Part shown: in pieces, positions 6,666-49,334 of the stretch
How the letters are laid out: the number at the start of each line of letters is the position of its first letter
Numbering within the stretch: position 1 is the stretch's first letter
NCBI GenBank assembly: GCA_010093745.1
Contig: MU005990.1
Span: 62,001-126,000 of the forward strand
Direction: 5' to 3'
Source: Piedraia hortae CBS 480.64
Taxonomy: Eukaryota
DNA: 64,000 bases
Made by a program: the position numbers and the translations under genes
Notes under the pieces: model-generated
Told to the model about the DNA's origin: nothing
The model's database searches: none
What the model saw: only the letters and a program-made list of their open reading frames with translations

Positions 6666-6758
6666 CCACAACGACCGAGGCGGCCACGCCCCTATTGAGA
6701 GTCAAAATGAGACCTTGGGGCCTCATAACATCTCAGAGCAGTTCACAGACAGCCAACA

Positions 6759-7358
6759 ATGGATCATGACATGAATATGGGCTCAAGTTCTCACTCCTCG
6801 TCCATGTCCATGGTTTTCACAACAGACCACAGCACACCACTCTTCTCAAATGTCTGGACGCCCAAGAACAGGGGAGCATACGCGGGAACTTGCATATTTC
6901 TCGTCGTACTTGCCATCATCAGTCGCATGCTCGCTGCATGGAGAACAAAGCTGGAACTAGATTGGCACGACCGTGCCGTTAAGCGACGCTACATCGTTGT
7001 GGCTACTGACACTGAAAGACTTGCCGTCGAGGAAAAAGGAGAGGATGCCACTCTGACATCTCGTGGTGTGGACGAGCGGGTTAAGGTCGTAAAGTCCAAC
7101 TCACGCGATTTGGAAATACCCCCGTGGAGGTTCAGCACGGACTTACCCCGAGCAGCGCTTTTTACTCTCATGGCATGTGTCAGCTACTTGCTGTAAGTTT
7201 ATACGTTAAGCTTTATGGGCTAGCTGATCGATGACAGGATGTTGGCGGTCATGACTCTGAATGTTGGGTACTTTCTGTCGACTCTTGCAGGTCTCTTTGT
7301 GGGCGAGCTTGTTGTCGGACGGTTTGCCTCGGCTGATGACGGACATTCATCGCACTAA
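6759..7358 (+). CDS. Ctr family high-affinity copper transporter; intron 7193-7237
   Basis: Met/His-rich N-terminus (MDHDMNMGSSSHSSSMSMVF), TM1, MxxxM motif (YLLMLAVMTLNVGYF), GxxxG motif and a His-containing tail. Confidence 0.94.
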
Positions 7359-7926: not shown

Positions 7927-9383
7927 TCAAACAGTCTCGATATATCGTTTAACTTCCCAATCAGTGACAGTCTCATCCCATAAACGAATCTCGTGCTCAC
8001 GAGTTCCTGCAAAATGGTCCACAAAATCATCTCCAAACACTTCCCTCGCGATGCTGTCCTTATGCGCGAATCGAGTTGTAGCTTCTCTTAGAGAACGTGC
8101 CAACCTCTCGCCATTACCAACCTCTTCTCCCTTTCCCAGTGGAGGTACGGGTATGGTTAATTTCTTTTCAACACCTCGACGGCCCAGAGCAAGTATGGCA
8201 GCCAAAACCAGATGCACATTGGTATCTGCACCAGGCACACGTACTTCGAATCTAGTTCCTTTTGCAGGGACTGTTGGAGGGGCAATCAGCCTTATAGATG
8301 CCGCCCGGTGCTCGAGGCCCCATGAGACCGTCACCGGCGCCCAGAAGTTCTCCACTAGCCGCTTATAGCTGTTAATTGTCGGCGCTACGATTGGCATGAT
8401 GTCTGGCAGGCCGTGAAGGAGACCGGCAAGGAAATGCCGACCGAGGTCGGACAAATTGGCAACGTCAGGCCAGGGAGCATTGTGATCCAATTCCGGTCGA
8501 GCAAACAGATTCATGCCGTCCGAATCGCAGAGACTGACGTGCACATGGCCAGAGTTACCGGGCAACCCCTCTCGTGGTTTTGCCATGAAGCAGGGTGTAA
8601 TTCCATAACTGGAGGAAACATTTTTGACTGCCAGTTTGAATAGCGCAGCTTTATCAGCCATTTTACTGATCTCATCATATTCTAAGGCAGCTTCATATAC
8701 TCCAGGTCCAGATTCAGTGTGCCAACCTTCGATCTCACACTGGAATTTACGGCAGGTGTCATAAACGTTCATGTACCAATCCAGATTGTGAACAGGTCTG
8801 GTGAGGCTGTAACCAAACATACCCTCGTCCAGGCTCGGGATATCCCCGACAGGATTTCTCTGGAGAAATGTTGCCGTAGCACTAGAATTGTTCACCGCTG
8901 ATGGGGCTCGGAAGGTATAGAACTCATACTCGGCTGAAAATTAGTGACTTTCTATGAGTTGGACACGGTGTAATTACCTCCCGCCATGGCTTTGATATCT
9001 TTTAGCCCTTCGCATTGTTTTTGTAACAAGCTTCTGGGACAAGCAGAGAGACTTACTCCCTCAGGCTCGCGGAAGCTGCAAAGGAAAAATGGCAGATCGC
9101 GTTCCCAGGGCAAACGTCGGTAGCTGTTCAAATCGACAACCGCAACAATATCACGATATCCATTTTCCTTATTGCTAATTTTCAGTTCCTTAAAATACGT
9201 CTTGTCATGCATGTCCCAGCCGAAGATGACGGAGCAAAAGCCGAAACCAGGCTTGATGATGGACAGAAATTTCTTTTTGCTCATCAATTTACCTCGCAGA
9301 ATGCCATCGACATCGATCCCTCCGACCTTAACGGCATCATCTCTCACCAGTATATCAGGTAGATTTTCCACAGTGATGTCCAT
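7927..9383 (-). CDS. Glutamine synthetase-like gamma-glutamyl-amine ligase (GlnA4/PuuA-type GSI-like); intron 8934-8977
   Basis: DVDGILRGK, AGAEYEF, HTESGPGVYE, CFMAKP..GLPGNSGHVHVSL, PTINSYKRL and RFEVRVPGAD. The flap reads NFWAP instead of the GYEAP of true GS. Confidence 0.92.
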
Positions 9384-9508
9384 GGTGCTTGGTATACGGC
9401 GAGATATCGGATGGAGCCGTGAGAGTGCCTGGGGCACTAAGCTTGATAAGGACATCCGACCCCTCATGCCCCCGCATGCCGGAAACGTTCCCATCACGTT
9501 CAACAGTC

Positions 9509-10401
9509 ATGGCTGAGCATAGAGGACGTTTGGCTGGGAAGAATGCCATTATCACGGGTGCCGGAGGGTGTGTATAGGTTCCTTATGCAAGAATTCAGTG
9601 ATTGCTAATCTCACCAGCGGCATAGGTCTGGAAACGACCATTCTTTTTCTGCGTGAAGGAGCTTCAGTGCTCATGTGCGATATTTCCGTAGATGGACTGG
9701 CGAAAGCAGTTGAAAAGGCAAAGTCACAGGCACCAAACAGGATTGGTAAAGTAGACACTACCCGCTGCGATGTGTCGAAAGAAAGCGACGTCCAAGCCGC
9801 CGTGGAAAAGCTTGATGCCTGGGGTGGCGTAGACATCATGTTCAACAATGCCGGAATCATGCACGGCGACGATGCAGATGCAACAGACACGCCAGAGAAA
9901 ATCTGGGACCTCACTCACAACATCAATGTAAAAGGAGTGTGGTTCGGCTGCAAGCACGCCGTCTTGTCATTGCGGAAGCATAAGAAGAAACGCGGGAGCA
10001 TCATCAATACTGCCTCTGTTGTCGCTCTGGTTGGCTCTGCCACCCCGCAACTGGCATATACTGCTTCCAAGGGTGCAGTGCTTGCCATGACGCGCGAACT
10101 GGCCATAGTCCATGCACGGGAGGGTTTCCGCTTCAACTCACTTTGTCCCGCCCCACTAAATACCCCGCTTTTGCAAGACTGGCTTGGCGACGATCAAGCC
10201 AAGCGCCACCGTCGAGAGGTCCATTTTCCCACCGGCCGTTTTGGCGAGCCGGTGGAGCAAGCTCAAGGCGTTCTATTTCTTGCCTCTGACGAAGCATCTT
10301 TTGTCAATGGCACAGATTTTGTTATTGACGGTGGCATGACTCATGCCTACGTAACACCTGAAGGTCCTCCTACGCAGCCCCCCGCGAATCTATCTCGATA
10401 G
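9509..10401 (+). CDS. Classical short-chain dehydrogenase/reductase (Rv2857c/SCO1611-like); intron 9568-9617
   Basis: TGAGGGIG, NNAGI, S...YTASK catalytic motif and C-terminal DGG..AYVTP. Confidence 0.93.
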
Positions 10402-10441
10402 TTAACAAGGGTTGACCTTGACACATTAGCATATAGACATA

Positions 10442-11246
10442 CTATAGAGATGCTCCCGCTGGAGGGATGCAATTTTCGAGATATTCGGCCAAGTCGTCGA
10501 TTTCTTCGTCCGTGGCACTGTGAGGTAGGCCTTTATAGGTCTTGAAATCCACTGACCATCCCCACTCACGCAACTTTTCGGCGGTCGTCTTGCCCCAGTC
10601 ATAACGCACCACAGCATCGGCATCACCATGGCCCATAAAGATTCGCGTAGACTTATTCGGACTGTCCTTTGGGATCATGCTTTGTAGTTTTCCCGGTAGG
10701 AGAAGATAGCAAGACAAGCCAAAAATACCGGCCAGTTTGGTCGGCGCAGTAATCCCTGCCAAGAGACTCATAGCTCCTCCTTGACTGAAACCGCCAAGCA
10801 CAATCCTATCGCTCGCAATGCCACTCTCGACCTCGCCAGCAATCAGGTCATGGAAGACCTTTTGCGAACGAGCAATTCCTTCTTCATCTTCACTCCTATC
10901 CGCGAGATCCTCAAAGCTTGTGATGTCGTACCATCCTGGCATGCGCATTCCCATGTTGATTGTGATGGGAATTGCGGGCGCATTCGGGAAGATAAACTTC
11001 GTCTCCTGGAACTTTTTCTGGCGTTGCCAAGTCGTTGCGATGGATGACCTGGATGGTTATTATTCTAAGTCCGCAGTCATAGTCAGGGTAGGAATTTACC
11101 ATCCTGCCCCACTGGAGTAGACGTTAGTGGTGCAATGTTGAACATTATGCTCCGTACCTGTCTCCCAGCCCGTGGACCATGATAACAGTGGACGTGTGCC
11201 TCTTTAAGGCTGGTACCACAATTGCTGCTGCCGTGGTCTTTTGCAT
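10442..11246 (-). CDS. APT1: Acyl-protein thioesterase 1 / lysophospholipase; introns 11112-11157 and 11049-11099, 12-nt exon 11100-11111
   Basis: HGLGDSGAGW, FIFPNAP.IPITINMGMRMPGWYDI, GGFSQGG, HGDAD and GLPHS (catalytic triad). Confidence 0.94.
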
Positions 11247-12309: not shown

Positions 12310-13160
12310 ATGGAGCGCACCCCAGTTTTCTTTCTCTCGCATGGCGGTGAGACGAACACCACTCTCCTCCAAATGACATTGCTAATAATTCCGATAAAGG
12401 CCCCAACGTTATGGTGGAAACTAAGCACCCGGCACACAGCAAGATACAGGCTCTTGGCCATGAGATTACCACAAACGTTAAGCCTAAGGGTGTTGTTGTG
12501 TTTTCGGCTCATTGGCAAGGTACCAGGGACACGATCGAAGTCAACATAGCTGAATCAACTGATTTGATATACGACTTTTATGGGTTTCCGCCCGAGTTCT
12601 ACAAGATGAAGTACCCCCATAAAGGCTCACCCGAGCTTGCTCAAAAAGTCCTGCATAACCTGAAACAATCTGGCATCAAAGCCGAGGGCGTGAAACGTGG
12701 ATTGGATCATGGTGTCTGGGCGGGTTTCATGGTTGCATTCAATACGCAAAAGAATCCTTTGAATGTACCGATTGTTCAGGTTAGCTTGTTTGGCTCTGAG
12801 GACCCGGATCAGCATTATGCGCTGGGTAAGGCCATGTCATCACTTCGTGACGACGGCATCCTCATATTTTGCTCCGGAATGGCCGTGCATAATCTCCGAG
12901 ACATGTGGAAACCAGGCTTGCAATCTTACACGACTTCTTTCGATAACGCACTGAAGAGTGCGGTCGAGGCAAAGCCGTCTGAGAGGCAACAAGCAATGAT
13001 AGACCTGCTTAAGCTGCCTACTGCTCGCAAAGCACACCCAAGTTTTGATCACCTTTTGCCTATTCACATCGCAGCGGGCGCAGCGGGAGAAGATCAGGGC
13101 AAACAGCTCTGGACATATGCTGAAGGAAGCATGTCTTGGGCACAGTATCGTTTCGGATAA
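12310..13160 (+). CDS. LigB-family (class III extradiol, DODA/YgiD-like) dioxygenase; intron 12347-12399; an upstream in-frame ATG near 12196 is possible
   Basis: FLSHGGP, SAHW, IYDFYGFP, RGLDHGVW, SGMAVHNLR and AHPSFDHLLP metal-binding motifs. Confidence 0.93.
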
Positions 13161-46035: not shown

Positions 46036-47739
46036 TCAAAATGAGCCCTCGGTGCTGCCCTCCATGCTCTTGCTACTCGCACTGCCGGCCTTGACAGAAC
46101 CAATAATTCCATCCAAGTAGGCAGCGCCGCTCCAGGCCTGGTGCTTGAGCACGTCCACGTCTAGTTCCCGCTCCCTCCGCTGCACGAGGTCAACGTAGGC
46201 CGCCATGCCTTCGTCTTTGAACCGCCGCGCCAGCTCAGCCGTGGCCAGCGCGTTGGAATGCAAACCCGCCAGCGAGATCAGCTGCAGGACGAAGCCGTGC
46301 GGTGCGAGTTTCCACACGAAATCTTTAAGATCCTCTTGGCTGAAGCCATGGGCCAACCAGTTGAACGACGGGCTCAGATTGTAGACGAGCTTCTTACCCG
46401 GCACCGTTGAGTGAATCGTCTTGGCAAACGATGCCGCCTGAATCACATCTGGCCGCGCCGTCTCGAGCCAAAGAAGGTCCGCATATGGTGCAAAGGCCAC
46501 TGCACGCTGCGTTGCCGCTGCCATGCCCGCGGAGTAGTGGTAATACCCTTCGCGGGTACGCGGGATATCCCAGTCGAATGCCACCGCGCTGCCGGCAATG
46601 TCAGCCGCGAGCTGGCGTCTTTTGGACAGAGGGACGGGCTTGCCACTGACGGCATCGAGGTACCTTTGAGGATCGCCGCTGCTCCGACGAATGTGCGCCT
46701 CTGCCGCCTCATCAAAGGTGACAAGCTTGTGGCTTTTCACCCACTCGGCCTCGAACGCATCAATTTCCGATGAAGCCGCCCCCGACTGTTCCATCTCCTG
46801 AAGCCGCTCGGCTAGGGGCTCTGCTCGTGTGTCCGTTACGCCAAGAATGTGTGCATGATCTCGCACATCGATGGCGGAACTGAGCAGTTTCCCGCTGTCG
46901 CTATCTGTGCGTGCAATAATGAGATTCTCACAGCCCATCAGATCCCACTGGAAGCGCGCGGCAACAAGCCGGTTGATATGCTCACCAGTAGGTACCAGCA
47001 CCTTGCCCGCCAGGTGGCCGCACTTCTTACCGCCATGCAGCTGATCCTCAAAGTGCACTGCTGCTGCACCATTCTCGGCAAACAGCTTTGCCAGCTTCAG
47101 GACCGCTGAGAGACCGCCGTGGCCAGTGTCGCCGTCGGCCACAATGGGCCGCAGGTAGTCGATGTACGGAGTGGCGCGGCGCTGTTCGGCCGTCATTGCC
47201 CTTCGCGCATCAAAGTGCTTCCGATCATGCAGCTGCTGTGCCTTGAACAGTCTCTGTACCTGGTTGGGCACCGTGTTGTACGGATAGTCCCCGAAATCGG
47301 GGCTGACTTCGTTCGTTGTTGTCAACAGCGAGCTGCAAGCCCAGCCTGACACGTACAGCACCTCCTGGTACGGAGCCTGTTGAGTCATTTGTACCGGATC
47401 AATGGCACCCATTGTATGCACCGGCTTTCCTTCTTTTGCCCTTCGTTCTAGGAGGTCAAAGAGCTTCCTTGCCATCAAGGACGACGGATATGTCTGCTGC
47501 AGTGTTCCCCGCTTGCCTACTACATCCTGGGCCGAATACGGCCTCTTGATTCCGTCATATCGCGATGATGCCCACCATTCCTGCACGTCCTTTACCTGGT
47601 TGTCAAAGATGGTGTTCTCAGCCCCTGGCTTATCGGTCTCGGGGAGAAGTTGAAATGAATCTGTGATATGTGTGGAAGGAAGCGGCGGCCGCACAGTGGA
47701 CATTCGCCTACAGCCGCGCAGCGAGCGGGATAGCGACAT
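46036..47739 (-). CDS. mcl1: Mitochondrial 2-methylisocitrate lyase
   Basis: ICL fold with KKCGHL (methylisocitrate type), YNLSPSFNW and an N-terminal presequence. Adjacent to methylcitrate synthase. Confidence 0.93.
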
Positions 47740-47830
47740 AATCTCGGCGCAGCTCTTTTTCGGTCTGGCTGGAGTTGAGATCCATCCGGAGCGGGCCGAG
47801 GATCCTTCAATTCTGAATTTGGCGCCCGGG

Positions 47831-47838
47831 TGACGTCA
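47831..47838. promoter_or_regulatory. Perfect CRE/ATF palindrome TGACGTCA in the mcl1/mcsA bidirectional promoter
   Basis: Located near the centre of the 163-bp intergenic region. Confidence 0.45.
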
Positions 47839-47902: not shown

Positions 47903-49334
47903 ATGGCTTTCACAATTCGCTCTGTCTTGAGAACTGCGAAGGTATCTTTGTTTTTTGTTCACATGAACTGTACTAAATATCTAGCCCGCGCTCCGTCGTA
48001 CTTATGCCACTGAACCAGACCTTAAGACGACTCTCAGAGATGTCATCCCCGAGAAAAGGGAGCTTCTTAAGAAGGTCAAGGTGCATTCGGATAAGAGTAT
48101 TGGCCAGGTCAAGGTTGAGAACACACTTGGGGGGATGCGTGGGCTCAAGGCTATGGTCTGGGAAGGTTCCGTTCTAGATGCCAATGAGGGCATCCGTTTC
48201 CACGGACGGACCATCAAGGACTGCCAGAATGAGCTGCCCAAGGGCACGTCAGGGACCGAAATGCTCCCGGAGGCCATGTTCTGGCTGCTCTTGACCGGTC
48301 AAGTGCCTAGCACGAAGCAAGTTCGCGCTTTCAGCAAAGAACTCGCGCAGAAATCGGCTATCCCGTCTTTTGTCAACACCATGCTCGACAACTTCCCCAA
48401 AGATCTCCATCCCATGACGCAGTTTGCTTGTGCCGTGTCAGCTCTGAACCACGAGTCTGTCTTCGCACGCATGTACGAAAAGGGCATGAACAAGGCCGAC
48501 TACTGGGAACCCACATTTGACGACTGCATCTCCCTGCTGGCCAAGCTCCCCACGGTTGCCGCCAAGATCTACCAGAATGCCTACCGTGGTGGTGGGCCTC
48601 TTCCTGCCCAGGCTGATGAGAACCAGGACTGGGCCTACAACTTCGCCGCCATGCTCGGCAAAGGTGGATCGTCAAACGAGGGTTTCCAGGACCTCCTTCG
48701 GCTCTACCTTGCTCTCCATGGGGACCACGAAGGCGGCAATGTCTCCGCGCACGCGACTCATCTTGTCGGATCTGCGCTCTCTGACCCCTTTTTGTCCTAC
48801 TCTGCGGGTCTGCAAGGACTAGCCGGGCCCCTCCACGGTCTCGCTGCACAGGAAGTCCTGCGGTGGATCCTGCAGATGCAAGAAAGCCTTGGCACTAGCT
48901 ACAGTGACGGGGACATCCGATCCTACCTCTGGACGACCCTCCGCTCCGGTCGCGTTGTGCCCGGCTACGGCCACGCCGTACTGCGCCGACCGGACCCGCG
49001 CTTTGAGGCCCTCATGGACTTTGCCTCAGCGCGACCCGAAATTGCAGCCGATCCCGTCTTTACTCTTGTCAAGAAAAACAGCGAAATTGCGCCGGAAGTG
49101 CTCAAAGAACACGGGAAGACGAAGAACCCGTTCCCGAACGTTGATTCCAGCTCCGGCGTTTTGTTCCACTACTACGGTTTCCACGAAACTCTGTACTACA
49201 CTGCCACCTTTGGCGTCAGCAGAGGTCTCGGTCCCCTCGCCCAGCTTATTTGGGATAGAGCCCTGGGCCTGCCTATCGAGAGGCCTAAGAGTATTGACCT
49301 CAAGGGTTTGCTACAGCTTGCGGGGGGACATTGA
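47903..49334 (+). CDS. mcsA: Mitochondrial 2-methylcitrate synthase; intron 47942-47984
   Basis: GGMRGLKAMVWEGSVLD, LHGDHEGGNVSAH, VPGYGHAVLR, NPFPNVD and LPIERPKS. Confidence 0.93.

Follow-up and report, generated by a model that had tools for sequence, protein, structure and literature searches.

A head-to-head gene pair of Piedraia hortae encodes a glutamine synthetase-like ligase and a short-chain dehydrogenase, a candidate module for gamma-glutamyl-dependent amino-alcohol catabolism in fungi

Introduction

Gamma-glutamylation routes for amines are known from bacteria. Here, we analysed a 64,000-nucleotide stretch of Piedraia hortae CBS 480.64 (assembly GCA_010093745.1, contig MU005990.1, positions 62,001 to 126,000 of the forward strand; hereafter the window), in which a glutamine synthetase (GS)-like ligase gene and a short-chain dehydrogenase/reductase (SDR) gene lie head to head at positions 7927 to 10401. 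A sequence-only reading of the window had interpreted the two as a GlnA4-like ligase and an Rv2857c-like SDR, together an intron-containing, co-regulated fungal version of a bacterial pathway of amino-alcohol and amine catabolism. It knew of no biochemical description of such a pathway in fungi, and the full-text literature that we searched likewise yielded no description of a fungal gamma-glutamylation route for amines.

Results

The ligase and SDR genes are spliced and share a short upstream region

The ligase gene (minus strand) and the SDR gene (plus strand) each consist of two exons and one intron and encode products of 470 and 280 amino acids (aa), respectively. The sequence and its reading frames agree with the earlier statement that the two ATGs lie at 9383 and 9509, with 125 bp between them. 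Transcript evidence was taken from run X1, the sole public run that holds this DNA, which is a contig set with a guessed RNA label; its contigs cannot rank expression or show induction. We regard the run as RNA-derived because its contigs are spliced. They skip 8934-8977 exactly and 9567/8-9616/7; both introns are therefore real and both genes are transcribed, which bears out the description of the genes as intron-containing. A single contig of 1011 nt (8803-9907) passes both splices and the intergenic region and thereby bridges both 5' ends, so the 5' ends of the ligase and SDR transcripts abut or overlap. The features of the locus are listed below.

7927 to 8933, minus strand: exon 2 of the GS-like ligase, catalytic domain (Gln-synt_C, 250 bits on translation P0001); stop codon at 7927-7929
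8934 to 8977, minus strand: intron of the GS-like ligase, 44 nt, GT..AG; a contig of run X1 joins 8933 to 8978 (CT..AC on the plus strand)
8978 to 9383, minus strand: exon 1 of the GS-like ligase, N-terminal domain (translation P0002); ATG at 9383
9384 to 9508, no strand: shared upstream region, 125 bp between both ATGs, wholly covered by RNA-derived contigs; one HGATAR site
9509 to 9567, plus strand: exon 1 of the SDR, start of the Rossmann motif (..NAIITGAGG); ATG at 9509; splice seen in a contig
9568 to 9617, plus strand: intron of the SDR, 50 nt, GT..AG; a contig of run X1 skips 50 nt (cut shifted by +1)
9618 to 10401, plus strand: exon 2 of the SDR, rest of the Rossmann fold, NNAG, catalytic Ser and YxxxK, C-terminal AYVTP (adh_short_C2, 185 bits)

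A public protein of 470 aa (P0004), named glutamine synthetase of Piedraia hortae CBS 480.64 at its source, is 100% identical to the ligase model. Exon 1 of the ligase weakly matched the N-terminal portion of the NCBIfam model for gamma-glutamylputrescine synthetase and aligns with the N-termini of 25 fungal orthologues. For the SDR, the protein collection holds a shorter call of 242 aa (9673-10401, plus strand), which starts at an internal Met (MCDISVDG..) and consequently lacks the TGxxxGIG cofactor motif. The longer two-exon model from 9509 is favoured by the spliced contig and by orthologues of 275-289 aa. The N-terminus of the SDR orthologues reads GRLAGKNA[IL]ITGAAGGIGLETT.

Active-site residues of the ligase resemble those expected of a gamma-glutamyl-amine ligase

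Gln-synt_C (PF00120; 250.3 bits, cut-off 24) is the sole Pfam domain of the ligase. The full protein P0004 scored below the NCBIfam equivalog model of type I GS (TIGR00653; 205.5 versus 429.15), and the ligase also fell below the models of type III GS (184.6 versus 470) and of PuuA (NF045547, GGputSyn; 150.1 versus 650). To inspect the active site, the ligase was aligned with Escherichia coli GlnA, using residue numbers of which every letter was verified on GlnA. All 6 metal ligands (E129, E131, E212, E220, H269, and E357) are retained, as are the glutamate-binding R321 and R339, R344, R359, G265, and H271, a set that includes the phosphate/ATP-binding arginines. Ligands of metal, ATP and glutamate are common to all gamma-glutamyl ligases. 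The residues D50, S53, Y179, N264, and E327 are replaced by K, K, F, P, and W, respectively, and the adenylylated Tyr397 is replaced by E. The NFWAP motif of the ligase aligns with the GYEAP flap of true GS. W327 together with a non-Tyr residue at position 179 (F in five, H in one) recurs in all 6 aligned fungal rows. The alignment thus confirmed two points of the earlier reading, the retention of the metal, ATP and glutamate motifs and the presence of NFWAP in place of GYEAP, with loss of the residues that handle ammonium. Judged from this alignment, the residue pattern is the signature of a gamma-glutamyl-amine ligase and not of an ammonia-fixing GS.

Two further identities were rejected. 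PuuA was dismissed on its model score (150.1 versus 650) and on its remote position in the trees described below. A FluG-type fusion does not fit a protein of 470 aa that has Gln-synt_C only and lacks an N-terminal amidohydrolase domain. Longer relatives of the ligase carry extra domains, a different mix in each protein, and seem to be merged gene models. Among them are fungal paralogues (46-55% identity) merged with D-serine-dehydratase/alanine-racemase-like or RidA-like neighbours (P0319 and P0324, two assemblies), which suggests that there are further GS-like fungal ligases with other partners.

The SDR groups with dehydrogenases of bacterial ligase operons

The SDR matched Pfam adh_short_C2 with 185 bits. 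TGxxxGIG, NNAG, the catalytic Ser and YxxxK are the classical SDR motifs. In the window protein, TGAGG|GIG reads across the confirmed splice, and FNNAG, NTAS, and YTASK are present in the exon-2 translation (P0003). An Asp stands at the end of strand β2 (..VLMCD..). By SDR classification, an Asp in this position indicates preference for nicotinamide adenine dinucleotide (NAD); the residue therefore suggests NAD as the cofactor and an oxidative role. The best NCBIfam model was PRK06057 (246.5 bits; the next model reached 186.1). This score lies below the cut-off of 404, the scored piece being exon 2 only, without 20 N-terminal residues. The SDRs of non-actinobacterial operons also stay under this cut-off (308-323 bits), and the SDR of the Streptomyces glnA4 cluster passes it (505.6). 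The best PDB match was 4wec (194 bits; next 130), which we take to be a mycobacterial entry. Aligning the SDR with 4wec and with the Streptomyces SDR brought out the motifs quoted in the earlier reading.

We then collected the 80 closest bacterial SDR loci, whose SDRs are 49-58% identical to the fungal protein. They belong to Acidimicrobiia, Acidobacteriota, Chloroflexota, Bacteroidota, Planctomycetota, SAR324, Betaproteobacteria, and others. A GS-like gene was present in 65 of these loci, mostly on the same strand and ending about 50 nt upstream of the SDR gene; among the 15 loci that lack it, 8 have less than 1.6 kb of upstream sequence. Pfam scans of four loci revealed the orders GS-SDR-aldehyde dehydrogenase (ALDH)-GATase, GS-SDR-ALDH, permease-GS-C26-SDR, and pyridoxal phosphate (PLP) decarboxylase-GS-C26-SDR-AFOR. 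Streptomyces glnA4 loci were fetched by a primer printed in the GlnA4 paper (PMC6529630). In S. coelicoflavus, glnA4 is followed on its own strand, at a distance of about 1.2 kb, by an open reading frame with an SDR domain; in the excerpted text of the GlnA4 paper, the Streptomyces cluster has the ALDH gene SCO1612 between glnA4 and the SDR gene (PMC6529630).

The fungal SDR is 46% identical to that of the Streptomyces glnA4 cluster. In a rooted quick tree, the fungal SDRs (Shimodaira-Hasegawa-like approximate likelihood-ratio support 100) were sister (96) to the multi-phylum operon SDRs, with the Streptomyces SDR outside both. The same tree, in which the outgroup branches are long, set the SDR family apart from E. 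coli FabG, HdhA, and KduD with a support of 99. On these comparisons, we assign the fungal SDR to the bacterial family found in GS-like/ALDH/amidotransferase operons. The likeness to Rv2857c that the earlier reading had proposed is accordingly upheld at the level of this family, by way of the Streptomyces SDR and 4wec as proxies, and draws on the GS linkage in 65 of 80 loci, the PRK06057 match and the tree. A look-up of the SDR orthologue in the Protein Atlas returned generic SDR clusters only and nothing on fungal range.

The head-to-head pair is conserved across Pezizomycotina

To survey the pair in fungi, metagenome contigs were scanned with an alignment of 26 fungal ligase orthologues. This yielded 80 loci, which formed 71 clusters at a nucleotide identity of at least 97%. 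By their nearest named ligase, the contigs resemble Mycosphaerellales, Pleosporales, Dothideales, Lecanoromycetes, Sordariales, and Xylariales. An SDR orthologue (62-89% identity) was found upstream of the ligase in 23 of the 27 clusters with at least 3 kb of upstream sequence, and in 28 of 33 when at least 2 kb was required. The two genes are divergent in 31 and tandem in 3 of the 34 SDR-bearing clusters, with a spacing of 0.3-2.8 kb. The misses (L160, L162, L178, L200/L201, and L202) have ligases nearest to Chaetomium, Coniosporium, and Mycoblastus proteins. In two named genomes both genes bear adjacent locus tags (LTR85_009887/009888 and LTR37_019704/019705). The head-to-head pair is thus conserved across Pezizomycotina. 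The earlier reading had suggested a survey of synteny across fungi, and the pair proved to be linked; chance adjacency in a compact genome was rejected, since the linkage is kept in 23 of 27 clusters. SDR orthologues are 75-87% identical across Dothideomycetes, Eurotiomycetes, Lecanoromycetes, and Sordariomycetes, and the ligase is 70-80% identical across fungal classes.

The fungal ligase belongs to a lineage separate from GlnA4

An exhaustive profile-free search recovered ligase orthologues at 44-54% identity in Glomeromycota, chytrids, Kickxellomycotina, and Saccharomycotina, which makes the ligase gene old in Fungi. Three ligase trees were built (115 rows, quick; 74 rows, quick; 74 rows, careful), with Streptomyces GlnA3 standing in for FluG. 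The fungal ligases were monophyletic in all three (support 96-100) and lay inside a clade supported at 96/99. GlnA4 and the ligases of the SDR operons, which are 30% and 27-33% identical to the fungal ligase, respectively, formed a separate clade with a support of 99-100 in the three trees, and PuuA, GlnA2, and GlnA3 were even farther from the fungal ligases. An approximately unbiased (AU) test rejected a joint clade of the fungal and GlnA4/operon ligases (delta log-likelihood 328, p 9.2e-7; the group was named after the first tree was seen). With 30% identity, a separate clade and this test result, the term 'GlnA4-like' had to be given up in its phylogenetic sense.

Bacterial relatives of the fungal ligase were recovered by a genome search with a Collimonas-type ligase and fell into two groups. 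In the Oxalobacteraceae group (Collimonas/Duganella type), the ligases are 33-37% identical to the fungal one. A Pfam scan of one such locus gave a permease, an amine oxidase, an ALDH, an amidase, a TetR regulator, the ligase, a PuuB-like flavin adenine dinucleotide (FAD) oxidase, and a C26 hydrolase; this layout is a Puu-like scheme. The second group contains the bacterial ligases closest to the fungal one (41-45% identity; loci L241-L263), from Burkholderiales, Usitatibacter, Opitutaceae, and Halieaceae. They share the F179, P264, and W327 pattern with the fungal ligase, and in the careful tree they formed the next large group to the fungal clade through a weak node (62-64 / 88-90). An Fe-type alcohol dehydrogenase (Fe-ADH) gene follows the ligase gene in 18 of the 33 loci of this group. 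In several of these loci, genes for a C26 hydrolase, an ALDH and an amino-acid-type permease lie close by, and a PRK06057-type SDR was absent from all loci of the group that were searched.

The Fe-ADH loci, for example L251:5406-10363 and L250:5398-11677, contain a permease or aminotransferase, a GS-like ligase, an Fe-type ADH, a C26 hydrolase, and an ALDH. From this gene content, loci L241-L263 look like an amino-alcohol gamma-glutamylation operon with an iron ADH in place of the usual SDR. We met no description of this variant, for which no dedicated literature search was made. As a ligase with an alcohol dehydrogenase recurs with two unrelated dehydrogenase families, an amino-alcohol substrate is supported independently of the SDR argument. 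PLP-dependent decarboxylase genes lie a few kb from related ligases in two bacterial loci (L251:2624-4021 and L049:3191-4720), and a fungal locus (L211:53-1441) has such a gene as well, placed about 5.5 kb upstream of the ligase, with a product that shares 38% identity with the L251 enzyme. These neighbours may hint at an amine derived from an amino acid.

HGATAR sites in the shared upstream regions

In 26 fungal loci, the upstream sequence common to both genes (34.8 kb in total) contains 180 HGATAR sites, or 5.2 per kb. Shuffled sequence gave 99.7 ± 10 sites, and the densities in the two coding regions and in the outer flanks were 1.1 and 1.9 per kb, respectively. GATA was the commonest of 12 permuted cores, the next core having 146 sites. 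The 125-bp spacer of the window has one HGATAR site (TGATAA at 9444), no more than chance. As a weak hint, the excess is compatible with nitrogen control by a GATA factor. Co-regulation, as claimed by the earlier reading, stands to the extent that both genes are expressed with abutting 5' ends in one run; regulation beyond that co-transcription is putative.

Neighbouring genes and other loci in the window

An Abhydrolase_2 (phospholipase/carboxylesterase) gene (10390-11056, minus strand) adjoins the SDR gene; a 53-nt intron on the minus strand (10390-10442) sits directly at the stop codon of this hydrolase gene. The 3' end of the hydrolase gene enters the 3' coding end of the SDR gene, so the two transcripts are convergent and overlapping. 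About 2 kb beyond this hydrolase gene, an open frame at 12351-13157 (plus strand) contains a LigB-type extradiol ring-opening dioxygenase domain (115 bits). Downstream of the ligase lies a Ctr copper-transporter gene (6729-7237, plus strand), whose 45-nt GT..AG intron (7193-7237) is seen in RNA-derived contigs. The window holds a second head-to-head pair, an isocitrate-lyase-family gene (46039-47835, minus strand) and a citrate-synthase-family gene (47985-49331, plus strand), with open frames about 150 bp apart. Going by family names only, the two are possibly the methylisocitrate lyase and methylcitrate synthase of propionate metabolism.

Discussion

Proposed function of the pair

We lean towards the view that the two genes provide the first two steps of a gamma-glutamyl-dependent catabolism of amino alcohols, probably of ethanolamine; in this proposal we infer which amine is the substrate, in which direction the SDR works, what the later steps are, and that the genes are under nitrogen control. 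The ligase would act as an ATP-dependent gamma-glutamyl-amine ligase of the GS fold with an intact gamma-glutamyl phosphate site, and would join glutamate to an organic amine, given that its ammonium pocket is rebuilt. The SDR, with a predicted preference for NAD, would oxidise the product of the ligase, a gamma-glutamylated amino alcohol, at its hydroxyl group and so yield an aldehyde. To complete the route, an aldehyde dehydrogenase and a gamma-glutamyl hydrolase would be needed, both unlinked to the pair. Ethanolamine appears to be the most likely substrate because the module corresponds to the two opening steps of the gamma-glutamylation pathway by which bacteria turn ethanolamine into glycine. 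By its phylogenies, the module combines, as a mosaic, a ligase of fungal lineage with an SDR of the type that partners another ligase clade, that of GlnA4. Since ligase and SDR partner come from different lineages, the pair is not simply a 'fungal version' of the glnA4 cluster. The part of that earlier claim that concerns the SDR family, the linkage and the active site was retained, and the part that derived the ligase from the GlnA4 lineage was not.

Several observations weigh against this proposal. In 4 of the 27 clusters, the pair is broken up or missing within 7 kb, and the locus tags of the two genes are non-adjacent in at least three named assemblies (ANO11243_004680/007880, LTR62_001783/004725, and D0865_11104/11009). 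Domain searches of the 64-kb window detected no ALDH, GATase/C26, permease or Zn2Cys6 gene; for ALDH and gamma-glutamyl hydrolase this had been noted before. Linked ALDH, permease or Zn2Cys6 genes, which the sequence-only reading had proposed to look for across fungi, gave little. An ALDH match was obtained in only 3 of the 80 fungal loci (2 clusters; L205, L207, and L208), and GATase/C26 was not found in any of the 80 searched. As the ALDH matches are weak (25-29% identity) and differ in position, we rejected ALDH as a conserved part of the module. The fungal ligase falls outside the clade of the only characterised ethanolamine ligases. In the Oxalobacteraceae group a PuuB-like FAD oxidase follows the ligase in 12 of 13 loci, and the pairing of this sister group with such an oxidase means that amino alcohols are not the only substrates of the wider ligase clade. 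The excess of HGATAR sites is modest, and it was gauged only against shuffles, coding regions and flanks, not against other fungal promoters. Finally, both proteins are conserved to a degree that is unusually high for an optional catabolic route, and a housekeeping or signalling role would also fit such conservation.

Alternative explanations

A route of the same kind could serve an amine other than ethanolamine, such as aminopropanol, or an amine whose glutamyl derivative the SDR would oxidise at another position. The position of the ligase outside the characterised ethanolamine-ligase clade, the partners of PuuB-like oxidases in the wider clade and the PLP-dependent decarboxylases near related ligases (L251, L049, and the fungal L211), which suggest amines made from amino acids, all point this way. 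We nevertheless consider it unlikely, because the SDR family has ties to the ethanolamine clusters of Streptomyces and of a marine Phaeobacter, as far as the excerpts of the two reports go (PMC6529630, PMC10132767), and because the permease on the ligase side in L251 is 44% identical to the permease of an SDR-type operon. Alternatively, the pair might serve housekeeping or signalling rather than nutrient catabolism, by making or modifying a gamma-glutamylated metabolite in the way suggested for the ligase half of FluG, with the SDR tailoring the product, maybe as a reductase. The conservation across fungal classes just mentioned, the ancient presence of the ligase in Glomeromycota, chytrids, Kickxellomycotina, and Saccharomycotina, the lack of linked catabolic partner genes and the transcription of both genes in the sole run found would suit such a role, and in its excerpted text the FluG paper argues that a GS-like fungal ligase acts through an unidentified gamma-glutamyl compound (PMC6478659). 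It is an unlikely explanation all the same. In bacteria, relatives of either protein share operons with permeases, ALDH and gamma-glutamyl hydrolases, which is a catabolic layout; the Asp ending β2 points to NAD and hence to oxidation; and the ligase lacks the amidohydrolase domain of FluG. In addition, the Streptomyces GlnA3 type, called FluG-similar in the excerpted part of PMC6478659, branches far from the fungal clade.

That the ligase is a genuine extra GS with a functionally unrelated SDR beside it is highly improbable. Its Pfam GS catalytic domain would agree with this, as would the public names of the approximately 120 best-matching proteins, many of which are called 'glutamine synthetase' and some 'Type-1 glutamine synthetase 2'. 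However, D50, S53, Y179, and E327, the residues that bind and deprotonate ammonium, are all replaced, and the score of 205.5 falls far short of the equivalog cut-off, on which grounds a true type I GS was rejected. The retained SDR linkage in fungi (23 of 27 clusters) and the independent linkage of the SDR family to GS-like genes in bacteria also speak against an unrelated neighbour.

Comparison with known systems

The nearest described parallel to the amino-alcohol module is the ethanolamine-utilisation cluster SCO1610-SCO1615 of Streptomyces, for which the excerpts of PMC6529630 list the gamma-glutamylethanolamide synthetase GlnA4, the SDR SCO1611, the ALDH SCO1612, and the amidohydrolase SCO1615. 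Both systems have a GS-like ligase without the Glu327 flap residue adjoining an SDR of the same family, and their proposed chemistry would be alike, with the amine glutamylated and the alcohol then oxidised. The window ligase thus has a neighbourhood with an SCO1611-type SDR as the GlnA4-type synthetase does, and this neighbourhood is kept in 23 of 27 fungal clusters. In contrast to the Streptomyces genes, the fungal ones are divergent and intron-bearing and have no adjoining ALDH, hydrolase, regulator or permease, and the fungal ligase, 30% identical to GlnA4, belongs to another clade. A cluster of Phaeobacter MED193 is annotated with an ethanolamine gamma-glutamylase, a gamma-glutamylethanolamide dehydrogenase and further steps, and its proteins increase on phosphatidylethanolamine, according to the excerpted text of PMC10132767.

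The multi-phylum GS-SDR-ALDH-amidotransferase operons, which include this Phaeobacter cluster and show tight linkage in 65 of 80 loci, contain the bacterial SDRs closest to the fungal one (49-58% identity), and the tree makes them its sister group. Their ligases, however, group with GlnA4 and not with the fungal ligase, and the operons themselves also encode the later steps. For the bacterial GS-like/Fe-ADH clusters (L241-L263) the likeness lies on the ligase side. These clusters have the closest ligases (41-45%), with F179/P264/W327 and in the same 96/99 clade, followed by an alcohol dehydrogenase, whereas this dehydrogenase is of the iron type, a PRK06057-type SDR is lacking, and the function of the clusters is itself putative. 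The Puu system of E. coli (PuuA, PuuB, PuuC, and PuuD) applies the same gamma-glutamylation logic to amine catabolism, and PuuA also lacks Glu327; PuuA, however, is far from the fungal clade, and the second step is taken by an FAD oxidase on the amine rather than by an SDR on the alcohol. Aspergillus FluG, in which an amidohydrolase is fused to a gamma-glutamyl ligase, is likewise a fungal GS-like ligase without GS activity whose flap Glu is replaced by Trp, as stated in the excerpts of PMC6478659. The window protein differs from it in having no amidohydrolase domain, and the FluG-similar GlnA3 type is distant in the trees, FluG itself being set apart by description only. For M. oryzae, the excerpted text of PMC8229676 reports that deletion of MoGLN3 (MGG_02538) caused no defect in growth or virulence and raised glutamine; MoGLN3 may be the orthologue of the ligase, and we do not use this as evidence.

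Significance

Taken more broadly, filamentous ascomycetes may possess an unrecognised mosaic route of primary metabolism, possibly under GATA control, that catabolises or detoxifies ethanolamine or similar amino alcohols via gamma-glutamyl intermediates, a proposal to which we give slightly less than an even chance. The conserved ligase-dehydrogenase pair offers a concrete hypothesis for fungal ethanolamine and amino-alcohol metabolism. It also provides an example of a partner swap between ligase clades and, with the bacterial loci, of two non-orthologous solutions for one pathway step, SDR and Fe-ADH. The label 'glutamine synthetase' is carried by many of the best-matching proteins despite the missing ammonium site. 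If the proposal is true, it would assign a function to thousands of genes annotated as 'glutamine synthetase', and it would explain how moulds and lichen fungi use the ethanolamine that is released from phospholipids.

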